44,083 nt of DNA from Candidatus Uhrbacteria bacterium (GTDB lineage: Bacteria > Patescibacteriota > Patescibacteriia > UBA9934 > GWF2-40-263). The stretch covers positions 1 through 44,083 of the forward strand of contig JAZDHJ010000058.1 of the NCBI GenBank assembly GCA_043805995.1, written 5' to 3'. The position numbers were made by a program, and so were the translations under genes. Shown piece by piece: positions 2,943 through 39,315 of the stretch; position 1 is the first letter of the stretch; each line of letters opens with the position of its first letter. The notes beneath the pieces were generated by a model. It was not told the DNA's origin, did no database searches, and saw only the letters and a list, made by a program, of their open reading frames with translations.

Positions 2943-3190
2943 ATGTTTTTTGAGGGGTAAAAGGGGTTTAAGGGGTTGCAGGGAGGTTTTTAGGTTGGGT
3001 GGTTGGTGTGGACGAAGGTCCGAAAGGTGTTAAAGGTTTGAAAGGATTGGTTGGATAGGTTTTTTTAATTTCAATTCAAACAACCAAAACCAATACCTTT
3101 AGGACCTCTACAACCCTTCGGACATAAATCCGATCCTATCCACCGTAAAAATCCCCTTCAACCCCTTAAACCCTTTCCGCCCCCTTTCGA
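2943..3190. repeat. Long imperfect palindrome: G/T-rich arm then C/A-rich arm (word-repeat family)
   Basis: Left arm contains GGGGtaaaaGGGGtttaaGGGGttgcaGGG (2954-2983). Right arm contains CCCCttcaaCCCCttaaaCCCtttccgCCCCC. 2961-2980 is identical to 10716-10735. Confidence 0.8.
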
Positions 3191-3227: not shown

Positions 3228-4127
3228 ATGAAAAATAAATATTTTTTAGTTCTTTTTACAACTTTGGTGCTGGCAGGTTTCGGTTGTTCTCCAACTATCC
3301 CAGCCTCCGACACTGCTGCCAAAGACACGGCCGAAGCCGTGGATTTTCAGTCGGGTTCTACTGTTACAATTAAACAAACAGTTTTTGGTCTGGGTGGTAT
3401 TTTTGCCGAGACAGTTTCAGGTGATGGCTTGGCTGAATATCAATTAGTTGTTGATTCATTCGTGCCAGAAAATTTCGTGTCTTTTTCTTGGTCGAACAAA
3501 GTTGAAGTAGAGACAGCTGACTCTATTGCTGTTCGAGAAGCTTTTGAGGCAGCCAGTCACCCTATTGGTGATACTACAAAAGCCCCGACGCCGGTTTACG
3601 AAACCGTCACAAAAACCGGAAACTATTCAACTACCGCTTTGGATAATGGTACAAAAATTCTTTTGCCGGCTTATTGGTCGGAAGGTGACCAATCTTTTGA
3701 GGATAATTCAATTATCTGGTTATCTAAAGAACAATACGAAAGTTTGGTGAGTACAAAAACCGCCACTTTGTCCCTTGGTTTGTTCGATGAAAAAATCGCT
3801 TCACTCGTCGGTATGAGTGACTCGGTCCAAAATGCTTTGAATACCTTGCAACAAAAAGCCGCCGACGCCTCCAAGAGTCAGGATATTTATAAACTGACAG
3901 CTGATAACGATTGGCAAACTTATTCTTTGCTCGTTGATGGAACCGAAAAGACTGTACAAACAATCCAAGCCAATAACTGGTTCGGTTCGTATGTCATTCT
4001 GGCCAATGCCGAGAATCCACTGGTTCTCAAAGCTACCTTGAATCCCTTTGCTCTCGGTTCATTCAATATTTCATCACCACTTTCGTCATTCCTTGGCTAC
4101 GAAGTTACGGAAATTAAGATTAAATAA
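3228..4127 (+). CDS. Secreted or lipoprotein-like hypothetical protein
   Basis: 299 aa. N-terminal signal peptide ending AGFGCS. No recognised domain. Confidence 0.65.
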   Translation: MKNKYFLVLFTTLVLAGFGCSPTIPASDTAAKDTAEAVDFQSGSTVTIKQTVFGLGGIFAETVSGDGLAEYQLVVDSFVPENFVSFSWSNKVEVETADSIAVREAFEAASHPIGDTTKAPTPVYETVTKTGNYSTTALDNGTKILLPAYWSEGDQSFEDNSIIWLSKEQYESLVSTKTATLSLGLFDEKIASLVGMSDSVQNALNTLQQKAADASKSQDIYKLTADNDWQTYSLLVDGTEKTVQTIQANNWFGSYVILANAENPLVLKATLNPFALGSFNISSPLSSFLGYEVTEIKIK

Positions 4128-7266: not shown

Positions 7267-7408
7267 AAATCTAATCTAATCTAATCTAACCACCTAAACA
7301 ATCACCAATCAATAATCACCCAATCCACTCCCCCTAAAGCCCTTTCGAAGACCCTGAGGTCTCTCGAAGGGTAATGCCCATTAGTGCCCTCCAACGCCCC
7401 AAAAATCA

Positions 7409-9996: not shown

Positions 9997-10231
9997 AAAT
10001 ATTTGGAATGTCAAAGTATTGAATGACAAATGACGGAGGTTTGTTGTTGGACATTGGATTAGTTGGCAGGTCGAAAAGGTTCGAAATTCATCCACCTAAT
10101 CAACTCAATACCTTTCGTCCCTTTACCACCTTTTGGACCCCACTCAATAAACAATCGAGCTTCCATAATTCAATAATTTAGAAATTCAATAATTAAATAA
10201 TTTCAAAAGACATTTCCAACCAATTCTACCT

Positions 10232-10675
10232 ATGATCATCATTGCACACAATATCCGCTCCCTTCACAACGTCGGTTCAATCTTTCGTTCGGCTGACGCT
10301 TTTGGTGTGGAAAAGCTTTATCTGACCGGTTTTACTGGCGCTCCACCAAGAAGCGAGATTGCTAAAACCGCTTTGGGTTCTGAAAATCGAGTGGCTTGGG
10401 AGCAAGTTGAGGATATTCAATCTCTTATTTTAAAACTTCGCTCCGAGGGTTATTCGCTAATCGGCTTGGAAAATGGTGATAATATAAAATCGATTAATGA
10501 AACGGTTTTTGATAAACCAGTGGTTTTAGTTTTGGGCAATGAAGTTGAAGGAATCGAAGCTGAAGTTCGAGAAAAACTCGATTTATTGGTAGAAATTCCC
10601 ATGCCTGGCCAAAAAAGGTCACTAAATGTCTCAGTCGCCGCAGGCATCGCCATGTTTGTCTTGAGTGGGAAATAG
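10232..10675 (+). CDS. SpoU/TrmH-family RNA 2'-O-methyltransferase
   Basis: 147 aa. NVGSIFRSADAFG, LVLGNEVEGI, IPMPG..SLNVSVAAGIAMF. Confidence 0.85.
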   Translation: MIIIAHNIRSLHNVGSIFRSADAFGVEKLYLTGFTGAPPRSEIAKTALGSENRVAWEQVEDIQSLILKLRSEGYSLIGLENGDNIKSINETVFDKPVVLVLGNEVEGIEAEVREKLDLLVEIPMPGQKRSLNVSVAAGIAMFVLSGK

Positions 10676-10958
10676 TGGTAGGATTGGGGTGGTTTAGTGG
10701 ATTGAGAGGGGACGGAAGGGGTTTAAGGGGTTGCAGAGGGTTATTCTGATGTTGATTAAGGGTTATTATCGGAGTTGTGGTGATTATTTAGGCGATTAGC
10801 GGGTTGGTGGTTATTGTTTCTTTTTTAAAATTTGTTATTCAAAAAAATAATCACCTTATCAATCATCCAAAAAATCACCCTCCAATAATCACCAAACCAA
10901 ACCTCAACTAAAAATCCCTTACAACCCCTTCGCCCCCTTAAACCCCTTTAACTCCAAT
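10676..10958. repeat. Long imperfect palindrome (G/T-rich arm, AT core, C/A-rich arm), word-repeat family
   Basis: GGGGacggaaGGGGtttaaGGGGttgcagaGGG at 10708-10740. Mirror CCCttacaaCCCCttcgCCCCCttaaaCCCC just before the next start codon. Confidence 0.8.
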
Positions 10959-16026: not shown

Positions 16027-17928
16027 ATGGGCGAACAAAATCAAAGCGAGGCGGGCATGCGTGAACAGCGAGCCGAGGTGCTCTTATGGTTTTTAAGAAC
16101 TGCAGAAAAAAAGGAAGCCATATTTTCTGACGAACAACACAAAAGACAGTTTGTTGAAAATTTAACGGCCGAAGGTTTTTTGCAATTCCTTAATGGTATA
16201 AACGGTATTTTGCGTGGCAAGAAAAAAACCGATTGGCAAATGGACGGCGAGACCGTTGCGGTTGTCCAGATGATTTTTGGGGTAGGATTTAGTAACGAAC
16301 TTATTCCGCCGGCCTATGAGGATAAACCTGAGTTATTAGAAAAAGTTTTGTCAACAGCGAAAGCAATGAGTCGAGCAGGAAAAAGTTTTGAAGATATTGC
16401 TTTAGTTATTTCGGCCGCTATTAATGCTGTCCATCCTTTTAACGATGGTAATGGCCGAACCAGCCGAATTGTTTATCAATTATTAACCAAAGGTTTTAGC
16501 GAAGAAAATAAAAAAGAATTGCAGGCTGTATTGCTCGAGTTTGGGCGGGATACAGTTGATATCAATCCCGGATTAATTCAGGTGGAGATTAACGATCTTG
16601 TGAAAAAAGAGGTTGACGTTGATAATCCTGAAAAAAATCCTGAAAACATGACTAATCTTTTTAGCCAATTAAACCCAAGGGAGATAACTTTCAGACAAGA
16701 AACTGATGAAAATATCAGGGAAATTTTTTTAGGCCTTTGTAGAAAAGAACAGAGAAACCTTTTTCTAAGCGTTTTTTTGTTTTTTCAGAATAACCCTGGT
16801 TTAAATAGAACGGATTTTATAAAAGAATTCCCCGGCCGTTCGGTTATTTTGATTGAAAAGCTGGCGGAAAATTTAAACCAAGAACAATTCAGTCAGATTT
16901 TACAAAACTATCGAAATTTAAAAAAGCGTTACGTTGAGATTTTGATTGAAGCGCTCGCCGAACCGGAAAATGAAAAATATCAAATTGAAATCGACGGACA
17001 AAAAATTTCTTTAAAAACTCTTTTTGAAAACAGAATGAAGGAGAATCAAGCAGAGACGGCTCAAAAAGAAAGAGAAAGAAAAGAAACAGCAGAGTCTGAA
17101 GCCAAAAAAATAGCAGCCATTAAGGAAAGAGAAGAATCAATAAAAAGACATTTTGAAAAAGGCGAAGGAAGCTATAAAATTTTTGAGGCCTCTGAAATAA
17201 ACTCAATTAGGAAAATTGAGCGCCGAGTCGCGGAAATTTCTGTAATTAATACAACTGAATTTTCGGCTGAACAAAAAATTAATATTCTAAAGGAAACGCT
17301 TTTTTCTTTGGCCCAAAAAATTAATCCGAAAGTCTCGATTTCTCACGAGATGATTAACACCTTTGTCGAGAAAAGGAAAGATAAAATATCAGAATCTGTC
17401 GTTCATTTCCAAAAAGTTTTGGAAATAATGAATTATTTGGAAAATTCCGATTTCTTTATTTCAAAGATTAACACCTCAACAAATAATGAAGAAGTGTTTT
17501 TTGATCAGGCTGAATTGGACAATCGTAAAGACCTGACTCGTTTTTTTGATGATTTATTTTCTCAGTCGATTTATTATATCAGTCCGAGTGGTATGTCTTT
17601 ACGTTTAAAACTTTTTGAAATTGCATCTGGACAAATGACCAAAGTTATTCAACCGACAGCCGAGCAGATTTTTTATAATGATGAAATGATCGACTATACC
17701 GATAAAAAAGTTATAAAAATTTCTGATTTATCGCCCGAACCAGGAAAGTTTGTTTTTGAAATCATTTCACCTGAATTTAGGCAAGCTGTTTTGCAAGCTG
17801 GTTCGACTCAAGATTCTATTAAATCAGGCGTTGGTGTCATCTCAGATCAAGACGAAATTTATGTTAATATTCCAAGAGGCGCAATACTTCATTCCGGCTG
17901 GCGAGTGGTAAATATCACACAAATATAA
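16027..17928 (+). CDS. Fic-domain protein with long C-terminal extension
   Basis: 633 aa. Canonical Fic motif HPFNDGNGRTSR. Charged coiled-coil-like middle (QAETAQKERERKETAESEAKK). C-terminal 250 aa unrecognised. Confidence 0.85.
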   Translation: MGEQNQSEAGMREQRAEVLLWFLRTAEKKEAIFSDEQHKRQFVENLTAEGFLQFLNGINGILRGKKKTDWQMDGETVAVVQMIFGVGFSNELIPPAYEDKPELLEKVLSTAKAMSRAGKSFEDIALVISAAINAVHPFNDGNGRTSRIVYQLLTKGFSEENKKELQAVLLEFGRDTVDINPGLIQVEINDLVKKEVDVDNPEKNPENMTNLFSQLNPREITFRQETDENIREIFLGLCRKEQRNLFLSVFLFFQNNPGLNRTDFIKEFPGRSVILIEKLAENLNQEQFSQILQNYRNLKKRYVEILIEALAEPENEKYQIEIDGQKISLKTLFENRMKENQAETAQKERERKETAESEAKKIAAIKEREESIKRHFEKGEGSYKIFEASEINSIRKIERRVAEISVINTTEFSAEQKINILKETLFSLAQKINPKVSISHEMINTFVEKRKDKISESVVHFQKVLEIMNYLENSDFFISKINTSTNNEEVFFDQAELDNRKDLTRFFDDLFSQSIYYISPSGMSLRLKLFEIASGQMTKVIQPTAEQIFYNDEMIDYTDKKVIKISDLSPEPGKFVFEIISPEFRQAVLQAGSTQDSIKSGVGVISDQDEIYVNIPRGAILHSGWRVVNITQI

Positions 17929-26474: not shown

Positions 26475-26870
26475 ATGACAGTTGATTTATCTACAAAAAC
26501 CATTGGTCGCCGCAAAGAAGCCGTGATCCAAGCCAAGCTGACGCCTGGTAATGGCACCATCGTGGTTAACGGCCAACCTTTGAAAGATTATTTTCCAGTT
26601 GCTGAATATCAGAACTTGATCAAATTACCTTTTGAAGCCACCAGCACCGGCAAGAATTTTGATGTCAATGCTTTGGCTAAAGGCGGCGGCAAACGCGGTC
26701 AAGCCGATGCTTTGCGCTTAGCCATAGCTCGTGCTTTGGTAAAAGAAAATATTGAATTCCGTGCCATTTTGAAAAAATTAGGTTACCTCTCCCGTGATGC
26801 TCGGGTTAAGGAACGCAAAAAGTACGGTCACAAAAAAGCCCGTCGTTCACCACAGTGGAGCAAACGTTAA
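26475..26870 (+). CDS. rpsI: 30S ribosomal protein S9
   Basis: 131 aa. GRRKEAVIQAKL.PG.G.I.VNG, C-terminal RKKYG.KKARR..QWSKR. Confidence 0.95.
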   Translation: MTVDLSTKTIGRRKEAVIQAKLTPGNGTIVVNGQPLKDYFPVAEYQNLIKLPFEATSTGKNFDVNALAKGGGKRGQADALRLAIARALVKENIEFRAILKKLGYLSRDARVKERKKYGHKKARRSPQWSKR

Positions 26871-27025
26871 GGTGTTACGAATCACGAATCTTGCCGAAAT
26901 CACGAATCATCGAATTGGCAACGAATTTTTTTCCCCGCTGTCATTCCGAGCCAACTCTTCGATAGGCCTCAGAGCCCTGAGCCGGGTCGAAGGGAGAGGA
27001 ACCCCACCTCGTTATTTGAAAAAGT

Positions 27026-27051
27026 CCCCGGTCGCAAGATCGGGGATTTTT
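27026..27051 (+). terminator. GNRA-loop hairpin plus T-run (border element copy 1)
   Basis: ccccggtc-GCAA-gatcgggg then attttt. Repeated at 27747-27773. Confidence 0.65.
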
Positions 27052-27118
27052 GGTGGAGCTGATTAGTAAATTTAGCGACAGCCATCCGAAGCCTTAATAA
27101 ACAGGGCGAAGGTGGATA

Positions 27119-27151
27119 TAAAAAACACCCCGACCAGGAAGGCTGGCGGGG
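27119..27151 (-). terminator. Terminator of GC-rich gene 27196..27513
   Basis: Minus strand: ccccgccag-ccttc-ctggtcgggg followed by tgtttttt. Confidence 0.65.
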
Positions 27152-27195
27152 CATGTCAAGGGTGTTTCCCGTCGAATTGATCGTCGGGTGATGGG

Positions 27196-27513
27196 TTATT
27201 TGAGGTAAGGATACGGGTAGTGCTCGTCGGCGAAGGCCTTTGCACTTTCGAGAGTCATTCCTGGTTGTGCGGGGATGATTTCTTGTTTTCCTGCCGCGAC
27301 CACCACCCAAACGAGCAACCTGTTTTCCCAAACGGATACGACCCCCAAACCGTCCAGACGTTTCGCTCCATTTGAGTGACGACCATTGATCTGAACTCGA
27401 AATGGTTGCCATAGCGAATAGGTTCGTTTGATCTTGTTTCGCGGGATGACCATTATCGCCACCACCAACAAAACCAATAAAAATCCTATTCCGATTAAAG
27501 TTCCGATACTCAT
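27196..27513 (-). CDS. GC-rich orphan, single-pass membrane protein (105 aa)
   Basis: ATG preceded by GGAGG (11-nt spacer). N-terminal TM helix LIGIGFLLVLLVVAIMVI. Own promoter-like and terminator elements. Confidence 0.55.
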   Translation of the reverse strand: MSIGTLIGIGFLLVLLVVAIMVIPRNKIKRTYSLWQPFRVQINGRHSNGAKRLDGLGVVSVWENRLLVWVVVAAGKQEIIPAQPGMTLESAKAFADEHYPYPYLK

Positions 27514-27558
27514 TTCTTTCTACGCCTCCAGGCTTAGATTACAGGAAAAGAACGATTG

Positions 27559-27587
27559 ATCTTAGTTTAAAATCCATTTTTTGTCAA
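27559..27587 (-). promoter_or_regulatory. Sigma70-like promoter for 27196..27513
   Basis: Minus strand TTGACA-17 nt-TAAGAT. The -35 box lies in the palindrome TTTTGTCAaccaTGACAAAA. Confidence 0.45.
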
Positions 27588-27634
27588 CCATGACAAAATC
27601 CAGTGTAATAAACACCATCTTATGTCAGCTTCAG
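27568..27634 (+). repeat. 67-nt direct repeat, copy 1 (duplicate of flippase promoter plus first 13 nt of its CDS)
   Basis: 62/67 identical to 28236-28302 by manual alignment. TTGTCA-17-TGTAAT, then ATGTCAGCTTCAG. Confidence 0.9.
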
Positions 27635-27746
27635 AGTATTTCGACGGTTCAAATTGTTCAAGTGGTCAAATTGTTTATTTCGGATCGGAACCGATTGTGA
27701 ACAAATTGAACACATGAACAATTGAACGTTTCAAAAAACAAAAGAA

Positions 27747-27773
27747 TCCCTGGTCGCAAGATCGGGGATTTTT
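27747..27773 (+). terminator. GNRA-loop hairpin plus T-run (border element copy 2)
   Basis: tccctggtc-GCAA-gatcgggga then ttttt. Confidence 0.6.
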
Positions 27774-27776
27774 GGT

Positions 27777-27817
27777 GTAAAAAAATAAGCGCCCCGACCA
27801 GGAAGGCTGGTCGAGGC
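27777..27817 (-). terminator. Terminator of GC-rich gene 27837..28178
   Basis: gcc-c-cgaccag-gaagg-ctggtcg-a-ggc with a plus-strand A-run, which is a T-run on the minus strand. Confidence 0.65.
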
Positions 27818-27836
27818 ACGATGACTAATCATCGTC

Positions 27837-28178
27837 CTAATAGGGGGTAAACCCCGGTTTCAGGAACTGTCCGGGCATTGGGCGGTCCGTCTGGCAAAAG
27901 AGGTCTGTCCCGGTGATGGTGTATACCACCGTTTCACCTTCTTTTCTGGTGTCGACTCTGACCCTGAGGTTACCTCTTTCGAAGGTGTTTTCAACCTTTT
28001 GGGTGGTGATGATGCTATCCAGAAGTCTACCAGGATTTGCGAAAGTGACTGTGATTGTCTTGGCTGCGCGGTCTTCAACCACCCGGATCACTGTACCAAC
28101 AGCATCTTCCAGAAGCGTTGGCAGGGCTGACCCAAAGAAAAGACTTTCTGGGTCAAAGGAAGAATCGAATACGGGCAT
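27837..28178 (-). CDS. GC-rich orphan protein (113 aa)
   Basis: AAGGAGG 8 nt before the ATG. No family recognised and no similarity to the neighbouring GC-rich ORF. Confidence 0.55.
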   Translation of the reverse strand: MPVFDSSFDPESLFFGSALPTLLEDAVGTVIRVVEDRAAKTITVTFANPGRLLDSIITTQKVENTFERGNLRVRVDTRKEGETVVYTITGTDLFCQTDRPMPGQFLKPGFTPY

Positions 28179-28226
28179 CAGATTGTCCTCCTTGGAGGAG
28201 TGAAAGGGTTGAGAATACAGCTATTT

Positions 28227-28255
28227 ATATTAGCCTAAAATCCGATTTTTGTCAA
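28227..28255 (-). promoter_or_regulatory. Sigma70-like promoter for 27837..28178
   Basis: Minus strand TTGACA-17 nt-TAATAT. Confidence 0.5.
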
Positions 28256-28302
28256 CCATAACAAAATCCAGTATAATAAACACCGTCTTATGTCAGCTTC
28301 AG
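28236..28302 (+). repeat. 67-nt direct repeat, copy 2 (functional flippase promoter and start)
   Basis: See copy 1. This copy continues into the 493-aa flippase ORF. Confidence 0.9.
28249..28277 (+). promoter_or_regulatory. Sigma70-like promoter of the flippase gene
   Basis: TTGTCA-17 nt-TATAAT, 12 nt before ATG 28290. Confidence 0.55.
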
Positions 28303-29771
28303 TTGCCAAAAATGCCTTTTATTTGACCGTGGCTACGGTGGGGCAGAAAATCCTGGCGTTTTTTTATTTTCTTTTTGTCGCCAATGTTTTTCTGCCGGAA
28401 CAAACCGGAGCTTATTTTTTGGCCCTCTCAATAACGACAATTTTTAGTGTCGTGGCTGACTTCGGCATTACTCCGGTCGTGATTCGCGAGGTGGCCAAGA
28501 GACCGGAAGGTGCGACCCAATTAGTCCGTCGAGCGCTTGGCTTGAAGTTGCCGTTTGTTATTCTTGGCGTGCTCGGATCACTCATCGCGGTTCAGCTACT
28601 CGGATATAGTCTCGAAGTAAAATTTCTAGTCCTTCTCGCCGCTCTAGTTATGGCCGAAGACGCCATCTCGTTACTTTATTTCGGTGTGCTGCGCGGTTTG
28701 CATATTCTGCGTTTTGAATCATTTGGCATGATGATTGGGGAAGCGATAACGGTTGGTTTAGGTTGTCTCTCGTTACTTATTCATCCATCACTGACGTTTT
28801 TAGTTTTGGCTTTGGTGGCTGGCAGTTTATTCAATGCGATTTTCTCGACGCTTCAAGTGGTTAAACACCTCGGCTGGCAGACAATAATTCCCATCTTTGA
28901 TTTTGCCGGGACAAAAAAACTTTTGAAAACCGCCACACCTTTTGCCCTGGCTGGTGGTTTTTCCAAACTCTATTCATACATCGATTCAATTTTACTTGCC
29001 GCTTTCATCGGCACCGGTGCGGTTGGAATTTATGCTATCGCTTACAAAATGACTTACGCTTTCCAGTTTTTACCCATGGCTTTCGTGGCCGCAGTTTATC
29101 CTGGTATGAGCGCGCTGGTTGGTCGAGATACAAAAAAACTCGGCGAGTTATTTGAAAAATCGATTTGGTATTTGTTAATTTTAGTCGCGCCAATTTCGTT
29201 TGGAATTTTTTCTGTCGCGCCAGATGTCGTCCGCTTGGCCGGGAAAGAATACACTGATGCCGCTTTGGTTTTGCAGGCTTTGATTTTTGTTTTGATTCCG
29301 CTGTTCCTCGATTTTCCCATCGGCTCACTTTTAAATGCCGCCGATAAACAAGCAACAAAAACTACGATCATGGGTTTAACAATGGTTATCAATACAATTT
29401 TGAACCTAATCTTGATTCCCATCGTTGGAATTATCGGGGCGGCTTATGCAGCTGAGGCCAGTTTTTGGTTTATGTTTTTGGCCGGCCTTTATTTTGTGCC
29501 GAAGATTATTCCGGGTTTGCCTTGGAAAAATTTGAATTGGTTGTTTGTGAAAATTATCGGCAGCGGAGCAGTGATGGCGGTAGTGACTTTGTTCCTGCGA
29601 CCATTTGTTGGATTTTTTCTAGTTCTACCAATCGCCGCATTCGTTTATTTCATTTTACTTTTCGCAACTCGTTCGGTTCGGATGGATCAATTAAAAGATT
29701 TAAAAAAACTGGTTTTGCGGAAAAAAGTTGACGTGACTTATGTCGAAGAGGTTGCTCCTACTAACACTTGA
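28290..29771 (+). CDS. Polysaccharide biosynthesis flippase (MOP/Wzx-like)
   Basis: 493 aa, about 12-14 TM helices. N-terminal pattern typical of Wzx/polysaccharide biosynthesis proteins. Confidence 0.8.
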   Translation: MSASVAKNAFYLTVATVGQKILAFFYFLFVANVFLPEQTGAYFLALSITTIFSVVADFGITPVVIREVAKRPEGATQLVRRALGLKLPFVILGVLGSLIAVQLLGYSLEVKFLVLLAALVMAEDAISLLYFGVLRGLHILRFESFGMMIGEAITVGLGCLSLLIHPSLTFLVLALVAGSLFNAIFSTLQVVKHLGWQTIIPIFDFAGTKKLLKTATPFALAGGFSKLYSYIDSILLAAFIGTGAVGIYAIAYKMTYAFQFLPMAFVAAVYPGMSALVGRDTKKLGELFEKSIWYLLILVAPISFGIFSVAPDVVRLAGKEYTDAALVLQALIFVLIPLFLDFPIGSLLNAADKQATKTTIMGLTMVINTILNLILIPIVGIIGAAYAAEASFWFMFLAGLYFVPKIIPGLPWKNLNWLFVKIIGSGAVMAVVTLFLRPFVGFFLVLPIAAFVYFILLFATRSVRMDQLKDLKKLVLRKKVDVTYVEEVAPTNT

Positions 29772-30855: not shown

Positions 30856-31547
30856 AAGAATTACCAAAATCAGAAATTTACGAACAAGAATTTGAGTACA
30901 TGCCTTGGGGAATTTTGATAAATGAAATTTTGTCTATAATCCAAAAAGAAGCCAAGCAAAATGGGAGCGTTCTTGATTTAATGTGCGGTCCTGGTTATTT
31001 ATTGGGTAAAATTGGCGAACAAAGAAATGATTTAATTTTGTCAGGCCTTGATATCAATGAAGAATTTATTAATTTTGCTAAAAATAAATATCCCGTTTTT
31101 TCATTTCAAGTTGTTGACATTTTATCTTGGAATTCAGATAAAAAATATGATGTAATTTTATGTACCGGTGGAATACACCATCTGCCTTGCGAAAAACAGG
31201 CCTCTTTTTTAGAGAAAATTCCAAGTATTTTGAATCCAGACGGCTTTGTAATTTTTGCCGATCCTTACATCGACGATTTTTCAAATGAAACCGAAAGAAA
31301 ACAAGCGGCTGCGAAATTGGGTTATGAATATATGGTTGCGACAATAAAAAATGGTGCCTCTGACGAAGTAATAAAAGTAACCATCGATATTCTTTATAAC
31401 GATGTTATGGGATTCGAATTTAAAACATCCATTAAAAAATTAGAACCTATTTTCAGAAAATTATTTCCTTGTCTTGAAATAAAAAAGACTTGGCCGAAAA
31501 TCGATTCTGAATATGGAGATTATTACGTGATTGGAAAAATAAAATAA
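30852..31547 (+). CDS. Class I SAM-dependent methyltransferase
   Basis: 231 aa. Motif I VLDLMCGPGYL. ATGA overlap with GT4. Confidence 0.75.
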   Translation: MKELPKSEIYEQEFEYMPWGILINEILSIIQKEAKQNGSVLDLMCGPGYLLGKIGEQRNDLILSGLDINEEFINFAKNKYPVFSFQVVDILSWNSDKKYDVILCTGGIHHLPCEKQASFLEKIPSILNPDGFVIFADPYIDDFSNETERKQAAAKLGYEYMVATIKNGASDEVIKVTIDILYNDVMGFEFKTSIKKLEPIFRKLFPCLEIKKTWPKIDSEYGDYYVIGKIK

Positions 31548-31552
31548 AAATT

Positions 31553-31897
31553 ATGGAACTAAAACAATTACAAAACGACGCCTCAAAAGTGTTTCTAAAC
31601 AATTTGAAGCGCGACAATATAAAAGTTAGTGAGGAATATTTGGTCATGAAGTTAACCGAGGAGCTCGGCGAATTCGTGCAGTCATTTTTGATTCATAAAA
31701 AAAGCTGTCGACCGGAAAAATATAAATCTTTAAAAGATTCCAAGCGAGAAACCTCGAAAGAATTAGCCGATGTCCTCGGAATAATTTTTGTTATTGCGAA
31801 GACGATGAATATCGATGTGGAAGAAGCTCTGGTTAAAAAGTGGATTACGAGGGAATGGATGTTGGGTGGGGCATTGAAGGGCTCTAAAGGGTGTTAA
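31553..31897 (+). CDS. MazG-like nucleotide pyrophosphohydrolase (small all-helical type)
   Basis: 114 aa. LTEELGEF and ELADVLGIIFVIA..MNIDVEEAL. The last ~12 codons are encoded by a G-rich repeat word. Confidence 0.6.
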   Translation: MELKQLQNDASKVFLNNLKRDNIKVSEEYLVMKLTEELGEFVQSFLIHKKSCRPEKYKSLKDSKRETSKELADVLGIIFVIAKTMNIDVEEALVKKWITREWMLGGALKGSKGC

Positions 31898-31917
31898 GGC
31901 ATTGAGGGATTTGTTTT

Positions 31918-32532
31918 ATGAAAAAAATAATTGCAAAATCTTATGACAAGATTGCCAAAGAGTATACTGAAAAGCATGGTTATAATGAACAGTTGTCGAT
32001 TCCTTCATTAAAGATTTTTTTAACTTTTTTACCAATCGGTGCAGAAATTTTAGATGTCGGTTGCGGTGGTGGACAAGATTCGAAATTTTTAGCGAATAAA
32101 GGTTGTCTTGTAGTCGGACTAGACGTATCAAAGAAAATGATCGAATTGGCTAAAAAACATGCACCCGAAATAAAATTTAAAAATGTCGATGTAATGAAGA
32201 TGTTGACTTCGAAAAAATATGATGGAATTTGGTGTTGCCGTGTTTTCCATCACATATCAGTAAAAAAACAAGATAAATTTTTGGCTAAGCTTAAAACTCT
32301 GCTTAAAAAAGACGGTATTTTATACATCACCTCGGTTGTTAGTGACAAAAAAGAGGATTACGAAGCTTTTGATTCTGGAAATGATAGTTTACTTAAAAAG
32401 CGTTTAACTGAAAAATCTTTTAAAAATTTGCTTATCCGACACGGTTTTGAAATTTTAAAGTTTAAATATTGGGTTGGTAAAAAAGGTATGGAAATTTTTT
32501 GCAAAAATTATGACTTTAAACGAAACATATAA
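31918..32532 (+). CDS. Class I SAM-dependent methyltransferase
   Basis: 204 aa. ILDVGCGGGQDS, VVGLDVS. Confidence 0.85.
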   Translation: MKKIIAKSYDKIAKEYTEKHGYNEQLSIPSLKIFLTFLPIGAEILDVGCGGGQDSKFLANKGCLVVGLDVSKKMIELAKKHAPEIKFKNVDVMKMLTSKKYDGIWCCRVFHHISVKKQDKFLAKLKTLLKKDGILYITSVVSDKKEDYEAFDSGNDSLLKKRLTEKSFKNLLIRHGFEILKFKYWVGKKGMEIFCKNYDFKRNI

Positions 32533-32776
32533 AAAAATAAAAGATGAGGTCTTGACCCATTCTTCCGCCGAACACGACGTCGACTCGGCTATTCTTGCTT
32601 TACACGAATCAACAACAAAATTATGGCAAGCCGTAGTCAATAAACAGACAGAAAAAACACAACCACGGGTCGGGGCAATTTTGCTTTCGGTTTTTTCTGT
32701 TATGCAAGAATTGGGAATAGAAAATCCTGAGGAGTGTTTGAAACAAAAAATAGAAGAATTAAAGACAATAAAATAA
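32510..32776 (+). CDS. Small helical protein, possibly a degenerate MazG-like paralogue
   Basis: 88 aa from ATG 32510. Helix pattern parallels the MazG-like gene, but the EExGE motif is replaced (LHESTTKL). Confidence 0.4.
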   Translation: MTLNETYKKIKDEVLTHSSAEHDVDSAILALHESTTKLWQAVVNKQTEKTQPRVGAILLSVFSVMQELGIENPEECLKQKIEELKTIK

Positions 32777-32778
32777 TT

Positions 32779-32832
32779 AAAAAAGACCTTCCGCTAAGTG
32801 TGGTAATATAAACCACGGCCGAAAGCCTTTTT
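32779..32832 (+). other. Conserved two-hairpin 3' module plus T-run, copy A
   Basis: ccgctaa..gtggt-aatataa-accac..ggc-cgaaa-gcc-ttttt. Homologous to 38344-38397, with one compensatory stem change. Confidence 0.6.
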
Positions 32833-32914
32833 CAAAAAAATAATACCATAATTAGGCATTGTGTCAAGGGATCAAAAACGAACAAAGTGGATAAAATAAT
32901 AAACTAGAAATTCT

Positions 32915-33538
32915 GTGAAAATTTATCTTATAAGGCATGGCGAAAGTGTTTCCGACGTAAAAGAAAAATACGATGGAGATTATGATGACCGCTTAACTGA
33001 TAAAGGCTTAGACGAAGCCAAAATAATCGCCGAAAAACTTTTGGACAATAATATTCAGGTTATTTTTTCCAGTTCAAAAGTTCGCGCTTTAGAAACATCG
33101 GAAGTTTTAAAAAAGATTTTGAAAGGTGAAGTAATTATCTCTAAAGATTTAAATGAGCGAGATATTTATGGAGCTTTTCAAAATTTGAGTAAAGATTATC
33201 CGGAAGAAGAATATCGCCGGCTTGGTGAAATGGTATCTGATCAAGAAGTCGGGGTAGAAGGTGTCGAAACTTTTTCTCATTTTAAAAACAGAATTACAGA
33301 AGGTTTTTTGAAGATAACCGATAATGATTATCAAACCATAGCCATAATTACCCACGGCGGCCCCATTCGTTGTATACTTCGAGATGTCTTAAAACTCGGA
33401 GAAATAAAGAAAATTGACAATGGAGCTATAATTGAGTTGGAAAAAAATAATTCTAAGTTTAAAATAATAAAAACCGAAGGTGTTGATTTTTCCCGCCTGT
33501 CATCCCGAGCCAAAGAGGGATCTCGCCTCGTGACTTAA
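32915..33538 (+). CDS. Histidine phosphatase family protein
   Basis: 207 aa, GTG start. IYLIRHGES catalytic motif, ITHGGPI. The last ~14 codons lie in a REP-like palindrome. Confidence 0.85.
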   Translation: MKIYLIRHGESVSDVKEKYDGDYDDRLTDKGLDEAKIIAEKLLDNNIQVIFSSSKVRALETSEVLKKILKGEVIISKDLNERDIYGAFQNLSKDYPEEEYRRLGEMVSDQEVGVEGVETFSHFKNRITEGFLKITDNDYQTIAIITHGGPIRCILRDVLKLGEIKKIDNGAIIELEKNNSKFKIIKTEGVDFSRLSSRAKEGSRLVT

Positions 33539-33600
33539 AAATGTTTTTTTAAAATTTAAAGTCACGAGGCGAGATTCTTCACGAGGGTTCAGAATGACAG
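33497..33600. repeat. REP/MITE-like imperfect palindrome (ctgtcatcccgagc family)
   Basis: Arms 33497-33534 and 33561-33600, with a near-perfect core at 33519-33576. Related half-sites near 26938, 2188 and 19588. Confidence 0.8.
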
Positions 33601-33708
33601 AAAAAATAAAATATAATTTTTTATCTATTCTAAACTAAACTTACAACCTGCATTCTCACCCATTCCAAATTCGTTGATTCGTGTCAAAATTCGTGATTCG
33701 TAACCCTT

Positions 33709-38441: not shown

Positions 38442-39254
38442 TTACAACGGGCTCTTAATGTTTTTTAAAGCCGGATTGGTTAAGTGGGTGTAAATTTGCG
38501 TAGTGCGAATATTTTGGTGGCCGAGCAATTCTTGGACATATCTTACATCAACGCCGTTTTCTAATAAATGGGTAGCAAAACTGTGACGTAGAGAATGAAA
38601 GGTTGCGTCTTTTTTTATACCAGTGATTTTTAGAGCTCGTTCAAAAATAATTTGTGCCGTTCTTTCGGTCAATCGACCGCCTCGTTCACTGGCAAACAGG
38701 AAATCATTTGCCTCCTTACCGGCCATAAATTGAAGAATTTTATTTTTCAATTTTTCCGGCATAACAGTAATTCGGTCTTTGGCACCTTTTGATTGTCGAA
38801 TATTGAGTTGGAGATTCGGTAAATCAAGGTCTTTAATCCGGAGTTTTACGGTCTCGGAAACTCTTAAACCGGCACCATAAGACAAAGAAATCATCAGTTG
38901 GTGTTTTTCATTACCAATCGAATTGATTATTTGCTCAATTTCCTCACGCGACAAAACCACCGGCAGACGGTTAGGTTTTTTGGAGAACTTCAGGTTTAGT
39001 TTGAAAGGCACTCTGACAATATTTTCGTAAAAAAATTTGATAGCGTTCAGGTGAACATTCATAGTTTGTCCGGATAAACCGCGATCTTTTAGACCAATCA
39101 AGTATTCCTTAACCTTAAATTCATCGAATTTATCAAAATTAGTCTTGAGAAAACCAAAAAAATCTTTTAGACAACCCAAATAACTATCCAAAGTATTCGA
39201 ACTGTAGTTTCGATACCGCAATTCGGTCTTAACTTTATCTAAAAAATCTTGCAT
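38442..39254 (-). CDS. Tyrosine site-specific recombinase (Xer-sized, IntI-like blocks)
   Basis: 270 aa from ATG 39254. LSYGAGLRVSE (Arg), KGAKDR, HSLRHSFATHLL, LLGHQNIRTTQIYTH (catalytic Tyr), C-terminal KSPL. No IntI-specific insertion. Confidence 0.9.
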   Translation of the reverse strand: MQDFLDKVKTELRYRNYSSNTLDSYLGCLKDFFGFLKTNFDKFDEFKVKEYLIGLKDRGLSGQTMNVHLNAIKFFYENIVRVPFKLNLKFSKKPNRLPVVLSREEIEQIINSIGNEKHQLMISLSYGAGLRVSETVKLRIKDLDLPNLQLNIRQSKGAKDRITVMPEKLKNKILQFMAGKEANDFLFASERGGRLTERTAQIIFERALKITGIKKDATFHSLRHSFATHLLENGVDVRYVQELLGHQNIRTTQIYTHLTNPALKNIKSPL

Positions 39255-39315
39255 AAGGAGCAAAAAGTGATACAATTATTCTTAGTTAGAAGTATAACAC
39301 ACTTCGCATTTCATT

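Follow-up and report, generated by a model that had tools for sequence, protein, structure and literature searches.

Two head-to-tail modules with different orphan genes between rpsI and a flippase gene in Candidatus Uhrbacteria

Anatomy of the rpsI-flippase gap

The window, by which we mean the whole 44,083-nt stretch analysed here (contig JAZDHJ010000058.1 of Candidatus Uhrbacteria, Patescibacteria or Candidate Phyla Radiation, CPR), has a gap at 26871-28289, between rpsI, the gene for ribosomal protein S9, and a polysaccharide flippase gene. This gap is filled by two head-to-tail modules, A and B, each with a different orphan gene. rpsI is the last gene of the ribosomal-protein/rpoA operon and forms the conserved left flank of the variable region, or hotspot; the flippase gene, with a GT4 glycosyltransferase gene next to it, forms the conserved right flank. 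With H1 for hairpin 1, P for the promoter block and J for a connector, the order along the gap is rpsI-H1-A-P'-J-H1-B-P-flippase. Each module is a full predicted transcription unit with promoter, Shine-Dalgarno (SD) sequence, open reading frame (ORF) and terminator. The features are as follows.

26475-26870, plus strand: rpsI, ribosomal protein S9 (ORF list; Ribosomal_S9 calls in syntenic position and tblastn in relatives)
26871-26934, plus strand: array of about five ACGAAT-type direct repeats, immediately after the rpsI stop codon (sequence and motif clustering)
26935-27018: insert X, 84 nt, structured, between the ACGAAT array and hairpin 1a; in the window only
27019-27055, plus strand: hairpin 1a, predicted intrinsic terminator of rpsI (repeat search; orthologue directly after rpsI in relatives)
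27056-27119: 64-nt spacer between hairpins 1a and 2a, in module A only (alignment gap; no BLAST match elsewhere)
27120-27151, minus strand: hairpin 2a, predicted cargo-A terminator, a minus-strand stem and then TGTTTTTT (repeat search)
27196-27513, minus strand: cargo A, orphan of 105 aa (ORF list; GGAGG 11 nt before the ATG)
27545-27634: promoter block a, with the predicted cargo-A promoter, a vestigial flippase promoter and a copy of the flippase start
27622-27717, plus strand: dead-end ORF of 31 codons that starts at the copied flippase start (MSAS...; ORF list)
27635-27740: connector J, 106 nt, palindromic, with TGTTCAA-type repeats
27741-27777, plus strand: hairpin 1b, second copy of the rpsI terminator (repeat search)
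27784-27819, minus strand: hairpin 2b, predicted cargo-B terminator, a 13-pair stem and then TTATTTTTTT on the minus strand (terminator scan)
27837-28178, minus strand: cargo B, soluble orphan of 113 aa (ORF list; AAGGAGG 8 nt before the ATG)
28213-28302: promoter block b, with the cargo-B promoter and a working flippase promoter (both predicted)
28290-29771, plus strand: Wzx/MOP-family polysaccharide flippase (Pfam Polysacc_synt, E 2.5e-25; synteny in relatives; in NCBIfam weak MOP-flippase matches, all below cut-off)

An earlier reading made from the letters and ORFs alone (the sequence-only reading) had proposed three borders common to the two modules, and a repeat search of the window recovers all three in place. 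Hairpins 1a and 1b are 92% identical over 37 nt; hairpins 2a and 2b are 89% identical over 27 nt (27120-27146 and 27784-27810), with a 19-nt identical core; and promoter blocks a and b are 86% identical over 90 nt. Within the last, the 67-nt core (27568-27634 and 28236-28302) has exactly the 62/67 identity first counted, and the homology reaches 23 nt beyond it on the cargo side. Patterns for hairpin 1, hairpin 2 and the promoter block each match in two places in the 44-kb window, with approximately zero chance matches expected.

Could the two modules have been brought together by the assembler, from single modules of two strains wrongly joined? The window is probably a metagenome-assembled contig, and strain variants at the locus exist. 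Against this, however, the longest exact word common to both modules is 26 nt, words of at least 11 nt across the joint at 27634/27635 never recur in the window, and the two copies of each border are not collapsed repeats, given differences at 8-14% of positions. An independent contig, L017, also has the same kind of two-module array (L-numbers denote rpsI-flippase loci fetched from related contigs). We consider a chimera of this kind extremely improbable.

An 8-bp G+C stem and a GCAA loop make up hairpin 1, which has ATTTTT after it and lies between an A-run and a T-run, so that it could act in both directions. A homologue is found immediately 3' of rpsI in all close relatives, including those whose gaps are empty (L002, L004 and L007). 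Pairing is kept in 97.9% of cells across 11 copies, with many wobble changes and one compensatory change from a U-A to a C-G pair. The suspicion that the borders might be generic terminators is not borne out: a degenerate hairpin-1 pattern matches the rpsI-flippase gap only, in 308 kb of related sequence, which argues that this is no general-purpose terminator. Hairpin 1 appears instead to be the resident terminator of rpsI, neither generic nor borne by a cassette. Hairpin 2 lies on the minus strand as a stem and T-run just beyond the cargo stop codon. Both hairpins have the G+C stem-loop and U-tract at the 3' end of the unit that characterise intrinsic terminators, and are predicted to function as such. 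The terminator scan calls hairpin 2b and misses hairpin 1, likely since its A and T runs can extend the stem.

The promoter block has the organisation of a back-to-back pair, with one promoter apparently serving the cargo and the other the flippase, and a palindrome at the -35 position, TTTTGTCAACCATGACAAAA (27579-27598), is common to both directions. A promoter scan finds the two minus-strand cargo promoters that the sequence-only reading had named, TTGACA-17-TAAGAT for cargo A (27587-27559) and TTGACA-17-TAATAT for cargo B (28255-28227). The plus-strand promoter TTGTCA-17-TATAAT that it had placed in the 67-nt block is present in the second copy, at 28249-28277, where it is the predicted flippase promoter, but not in the first: the copy in block a reads TTGTCA-17-TGTAAT, has lost the A at position -11 and fails the scan. 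Block a also holds a copied flippase ATG plus 10 nt of coding sequence (27622-27634). The short ORF opened there runs into an imperfect palindrome, just as first described, and is probably vestigial. The flippase ATG itself, at 28290, lies 12 nt past the -10 element and has no SD sequence, and the flippase mRNA is for this reason probably leaderless or nearly so.

The redundant internal flippase promoter reads TGTAAT in both of the two-module arrays, at 27604-27609 in the window and at about 1621-1626 in L017, and both arrays keep the -35 element, which also serves the cargo promoter, beside the lost -11 A. This could reflect parallel silencing or shared ancestry.

The identity of the repeated unit is suggested by connector J. 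The J region contains a palindrome with 24-nt arms that are 88% complementary, and the segment 27630-27780, comprising J and hairpin 1b, has a DNA fold z of -5.4. J aligns, with z = 25 against shuffles, to the spacer that separates hairpin 1 from the rpsI stop codon in L004/L028, where the gap is otherwise empty. Because J matches the rpsI-downstream sequence of L004, the repeated unit is the entire rpsI-flippase intergenic region. Module B opens with sequence of the rpsI-downstream type, module A closes with the first 13 nt of the flippase gene, and the two modules are different versions of one intergenic region. L004 has its first J-type copy at 3814-3886 and a second at 7295-7405, after the GT2 gene, and J is thus a member of a dispersed intergenic repeat family.

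The corresponding leader of module A is the ACGAAT array, and arrays of this kind also follow rpsI in L001, L002, L005, L008, L017, L024 and L037. Insert X, which comes next in the window, is missing at that position in L001 and L037 and has 0 BLAST matches in the fetched loci; the 136-nt stretch 26925-27060, which takes in X and hairpin 1a, has a fold z of -3.7 against shuffles. Short-repeat arrays of this sort are lineage-specific and occupy two intergenic sites per genome, one always just after rpsI. The ACGAAT array stands at 26877-26926 (plus strand) and 33669-33701 (minus strand) in the window; ACGAAT is the type in most relatives, and TGTTCAA palindromes that in L004/L028. The arrays could be protein-binding sites or elements resembling repetitive extragenic palindromes.

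Did the array, then, arise inside this genome, by tandem duplication of the intergenic region and a later replacement of the coding sequence in one copy? Promoter copy a (Pa) is closer to copy b (Pb; 72/86) than to the L001 promoter (65/86), and the copied ATG plus 10 nt is the end-point that a duplication ending inside the flippase gene would be expected to leave. The rpsI-downstream elements of the two copies differ, however, being an ACGAAT array in one and a TGTTCAA palindrome in the other, and their hairpin-2 variants come from different haplotypes, that of hairpin 2a (...GGCGGGGCATG) being L037-like and that of hairpin 2b L001-like. The cargo regions, moreover, retain no similarity. BLASTP of A against B gives no alignment, and local alignment of the cargo-region DNA (398 and 402 nt) scores below shuffled controls (z = -1.2). 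The cargos are thus as dissimilar as the sequence-only reading had held, and the hidden homology that their near-equal lengths might suggest is ruled out. A duplication would still need a second, unexplained replacement step, and we regard this course of events as quite improbable. A simple tandem duplication with homology over the whole length was rejected on the unrelated cargo regions and the differing rpsI-downstream elements.

Orphan cargo and the same frame in relatives

Residues 3-22 of cargo A are predicted to form an N-terminal transmembrane helix, and the protein to have a small beta-rich domain. Searches of a library of 5.8 billion proteins, and of 1.84 billion representatives with full HMMER, return cargo A alone. 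Cargo B has a single known homologue, B', which is 72% identical and lies at the same locus in L001. For A, B and E (a cargo from L037, described below), no homologue beyond the rpsI-flippase locus is found among the 5.8 billion proteins. The profile and structure searches that the sequence-only reading had called for give no significant family or fold match. Cargo A has no match above cut-off in Pfam and no match at all in PADLOC, PHROGs or NCBIfam, and cargo B matches no family in these four collections save one weak PHROG of unknown function (E 0.007). Across the proteins A, B, C, D and those of L008, L005/L006 and L011, nothing scores above cut-off in the same collections, and the sub-threshold matches include FGFR3_TM, DivIC and one PHROG of unknown function. 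The AlphaFold2 models are of low confidence (predicted local distance difference test, pLDDT, 63 for A and 49 for B), and a Foldseek search with them against the PDB gives no match at E <= 0.001; a weak ferredoxin-like resemblance of B is given no weight here.

The ratio of nonsynonymous to synonymous substitution rates between cargo B and B' of L001 is 0.46, compared with 0.04-0.05 for S9, L13 and rpoA, suggesting that cargo B is under weak purifying selection and evolves fast. The cargo genes had been described as GC-rich. They do stand above the neighbouring genes, but the excess is modest (47.8% for A and 51.2% for B, against 43.5-47.4% for the neighbours; 40.5% for the window). SD sequences are strong in all of the cargos inspected (A to E), the flippase gene having none. 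A phage origin was considered and set aside, with no match in viral contigs to the cargo A protein, the cargo B protein or hairpin 1. Our guess would be that the cargos are strain-specific accessory proteins of the cell envelope or of host/phage interaction, since A, D and the L024 cargo look membrane-bound, B is fast-evolving, and the cargos share their promoter region with a surface-polysaccharide operon.

Related loci were collected by scanning contigs of metagenomes and of GTDB genomes for the flippase, a scan that places the window in Candidatus Uhrbacteria. The synteny rpsI-flippase-GT4-GT2 holds across the clade, and the rpsI-flippase gap is 20 nt at its shortest and 3774 nt at its longest. 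In the closest relatives nucleotide identity is about 91-97% in ribosomal genes and about 85-92% in the flippase gene. Seven distinct loci (L002, L004, L007, L010, L013, L019 and L021) have near-empty gaps of ~20-190 nt with no likely gene; L033 is a close variant of L021, and some empty loci are present in both collections. Exact-protein look-ups for more strains returned no record for S9, L13, rpoA or the flippase, and only the protein L17 added contigs. The filled gaps include these.

L001 (= L022 = L036): a single module with B', which comes after hairpins 1 and 2 and before the promoter
L037 and L038, from two independent samples: a single module in which the unrelated cargo E (124 aa) has hairpin 1 and a variant of hairpin 2 on one side and the promoter on the other
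L017: two modules; cargo C has 122 aa, and cargo D has 51 aa that include a hydrophobic segment; two copies of hairpin 1, 95% identical
L024 (more distant, about 71% aa identity): one module, a 153-aa hydrophobic protein, apparently a multi-pass membrane protein, with the hairpin-2 homologue CCCCGACCAGGAAGCTGGTTGGGG after it

The gaps of L005, L006, L008 and L011 hold yet other genes. Conserved flanks around variable cargo, as seen in the window, thus recur in the relatives, where the place of the cargo is taken by B', E, C and D together, the 153-aa membrane protein or nothing. The relatives do not carry the same two genes with diverged flanks, as they would after an old duplication; it is the cargo that differs. 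Cargos A-E and the L008 ORF have no mutual similarity, and hairpin 2 and the promoter are common to four unrelated coding sequences, those of A, B/B', E and the L024 gene.

In L006 (= L023), H1-like hairpins at 1340-1383 and 2991-3034 bracket an extra plus-strand gene of 513 aa, which precedes a minus-strand cargo of 258 aa homologous to the L005 cargo. L006 is a third case in which the rpsI terminator is duplicated around an added gene.

Three further observations concern the neighbourhood. The GT4-GT2 interval (30856-33708) is a second variable spot, with 2.85 kb of low-GC DNA (0.29-0.36) in the window that codes for two S-adenosylmethionine (SAM) methyltransferases, a MazG-like protein and a histidine phosphatase; in the relatives the GT4-GT2 gap is 3-760 nt. 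A 633-aa Fic/DOC-domain protein is encoded at 16027-17928 (plus strand), upstream of the alaS/ribosomal-protein region, and no relation between it and the modules was found. L001 has a DDE_Tnp_1 transposase gene at 10157-10765, ~7 kb off the hotspot and past alaS, with no counterpart among the window ORFs scanned.

Routes to a two-module array

How did two modules come to stand in a single gap? We hold, with moderate confidence, that two alleles of a recombination hotspot were stacked by general recombination at conserved regulatory repeats, with no dedicated recombinase. The gap would then be a strain-variable hotspot, an 'expression socket', whose order is a short-repeat element, hairpin 1, the opposite-facing hairpin 2, a minus-strand orphan gene and a divergent promoter pair. 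The route we infer begins with one illegitimate joint, of flippase nt +13 to the element normally found after the rpsI stop codon, which unequal exchange might produce, or the circularisation of an intergenic fragment that came in from outside. In the ~37-nt hairpin-1 repeat, a homologous, Campbell-type crossover would then give rpsI-H1-A-P'-J-H1-B-P-flippase. Its partners would be an allele like that of L001, already resident, and an L037-like one, circularised or misaligned, that bears cargo A and a J-type leader. Modules could be lost and swapped through these same repeats.

A crossover inside hairpin 1 should leave a mosaic: an L037-like hairpin 2a and Pa, an L001-like hairpin 2b and cargo B, and C and T in hairpins 1a and 1b respectively. 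The variants fall in this way. Promoter copy a (CACCATC) is L037-like, and the stem of hairpin 1a carries C as in L001 and that of hairpin 1b T as in L037. The L037 promoter differs from copy b of the window by a single position in 56 nt, from TTTTTGTCAAC to flippase +13. Exchange through flank homology is likewise consistent with the mosaic border variants and with flanks that are 85-96% identical in nucleotide sequence among relatives. The joints, finally, are not alike: in the window flippase nt +13 is fused to the rpsI-downstream element, whereas in L017 a partial promoter copy (-10) runs straight into the second hairpin 1. Because the joints differ between the two arrays, a fixed attachment site is disfavoured.

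Several points nevertheless weigh against stacking by general recombination. No single-module parental allele with cargo A was found, A being known from the window only, and the hairpin-1 mosaic depends on one or two nucleotide positions. The direction is unpolarised, so that deletion could yield L001 or L037 just as insertion could yield the window, and the homology tracts (about 27-90 nt) are short for efficient RecA-dependent exchange. Nor does this account explain the entry of unrelated coding sequences into one hairpin-2/promoter frame, and the structure of the contig rests on the assembly.

The question of direction leads to a contrary account, in which an ancestral and longer array of modules was reduced by differential loss, through deletion at the hairpin-1 and promoter repeats, while gene conversion homogenised the borders. 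Direct repeats of 37-90 nt make deletion easy, and deletion between hairpins 1a and 1b of a window-like array would give L001, element X aside. Compared with L001, Pa and Pb have window-specific states in common, as conversion could have produced, and the internal promoter copies of the window and L017 both read TGTAATAAA. Yet the window and its close relatives carry five unrelated cargos (A-E), of which only B/B' is shared (window and L001), so that the ancestor would need at least five modules, cut to one or two everywhere, and the more distant relatives mostly have 0 or 1 module. The differing joints of the window and L017, and the different rpsI-downstream elements of the modules (ACGAAT and TGTTCAA types), also count against it. 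We judge differential loss unlikely.

The sequence-only reading had suggested repeated site-specific insertion of small gene cassettes, with a duplicated target, at the 5' end of the flippase gene. This proposal is not supported: the borders are resident, the repeated unit is the whole intergenic region, the joints differ and the nearest recombinase is 10 kb off. In a broader form it would invoke a dedicated cassette system, integron-like or Xer-module-like, that inserts upstream of the flippase gene, for example through that recombinase. Conserved hairpin borders with variable orphan cargo recur in the relatives, J is a long palindrome, and the sole tyrosine recombinase of the window (38442-39275, minus strand, 277 aa) scores 233 bits, in two stretches, on TIGR02249, the model of the integron-integrase subfamily. 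That score is below the cut-off of 265, however, and the protein instead passes the XerA-type model NF040815 (228.5 against 220 bits); more than 10 ORFs of at least 90 aa separate it from the array. It is probably a housekeeping Xer enzyme, and no link between it and the modules was found, nor is any repeat resembling an attachment site linked to them. No intI adjoins the array, nor are there promoterless, co-oriented cassettes behind a common promoter (Pc) or attC sites, the latter judged from anatomy only. Empty loci have hairpin 1 too, and a separate promoter precedes each cargo. Hairpin 1 on the left and the promoter block on the right are mutually unrelated borders, and there are no terminal inverted repeats; the joints are non-uniform between arrays, and J occurs once in the window rather than at each module boundary. 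A dedicated system of this kind is, in our judgement, very unlikely.

Other kinds of element were also considered. Pfam was run on 27 of the window ORFs, leaving aside other long ones that lie mostly upstream of 13.5 kb, and none of the 27 is a transposase. A transposable element or miniature inverted-repeat transposable element (MITE) was rejected on this result together with the absence of inverted-repeat borders and of further border copies in the window. An Rfam scan of the window gives 0 families at the gathering score, and no tRNA or tmRNA is present, which rules out a structured RNA or tRNA as an insertion target. A replication origin or dif site at the repeat arrays was discounted as well, since GC skew has no switch at the locus and the flanking genes are co-oriented.

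Known systems and meaning for the Patescibacteria

The closest system in how the locus seems to work, by analogy, is that of the promoter-early stem-loop (PeSL) cassettes of T4-type phages. There, composites of promoter and terminator flank non-essential ORFans, and recombination between them is proposed to drive insertion, deletion and replacement of ORFans between close relatives and can give mini-circles (Arbiol et al. 2010, PMC2839356; Comeau et al. 2014, PMC4122927). In the window, similarly, a sigma-70-like promoter and terminator stem-loops flank the orphan genes A and B, and in L017 the promoter copy that abuts hairpin 1 is literally a promoter/stem-loop composite. The differences are also marked. 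The present locus is on a cellular CPR chromosome, beside a ribosomal operon, and not in the hyperplastic region of a T4-type phage; it is a single locus, compared with many dispersed cassettes per genome; its promoter is bidirectional, with the cargo transcribed away from the flippase; and in sequence the two are unrelated.

Minimal mobile elements of Neisseria are, according to one account, exchanged by homologous recombination in conserved flanks (PMC3787668). The rpsI-flippase locus resembles them: rpsI and the flippase enclose different genes, or none, and no mobility gene is among these. It differs in that natural transformation is established in Neisseria but presumed for CPR bacteria. 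We know of no minimal mobile element that has been described with an internal promoter/terminator frame or with tandem stacking of alleles.

With integrons the locus shares small, mostly orphan genes, imperfect-palindrome elements between them and a fixed chromosomal position. It lacks an adjacent intI, has short near-perfect terminator hairpins in place of attC, gives each gene its own promoter with transcription towards rpsI and no common Pc, and has non-uniform joints. Phage 'morons', reportedly defined by Hendrix and colleagues in about 2000 in prophage and phage genomes, are likewise extra genes, each with its own promoter and terminator, between genes that are adjacent in relatives; here, in contrast, the locus is chromosomal, and the cargo proteins and hairpin 1 have no match in viral contigs. 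We conclude that the locus is strictly neither a PeSL cassette nor a minimal mobile element, and that it is not an integron. A limited literature search on hypervariable regions of CPR genomes gave nothing specific to a locus of this type.

A bolder view would make of it a purpose-built 'gene socket', with a constant bidirectional promoter and two terminators beside the surface-polysaccharide operon, that loads, stacks and exchanges lineage-restricted orphan genes by hairpin-directed recombination, a chromosomal analogue of the integron or PeSL cassette; we think this distinctly doubtful. It is equally speculative that such a socket would be integrase-independent or Xer-dependent and would give new genes a nursery or a place of display. 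We take ordinary recombination to be the likely mechanism.

In the CPR/Patescibacteria genomes are tiny, recognisable mobile elements are few and orphan genes make up a very large share; the ways in which such genes are acquired and exchanged are poorly understood. The rpsI-flippase locus offers a compact, sequence-defined case of the swapping and stacking of orphan genes in a constant promoter/terminator frame. Should the pattern prove general, conserved regulatory elements would also act as landing pads for recombination, so that incoming genes are expressed and insulated at once. This would bear on strain-level variation in episymbiotic bacteria, and rpsI-wzx would then provide a marker locus for tracking Uhrbacteria strains in metagenomes.

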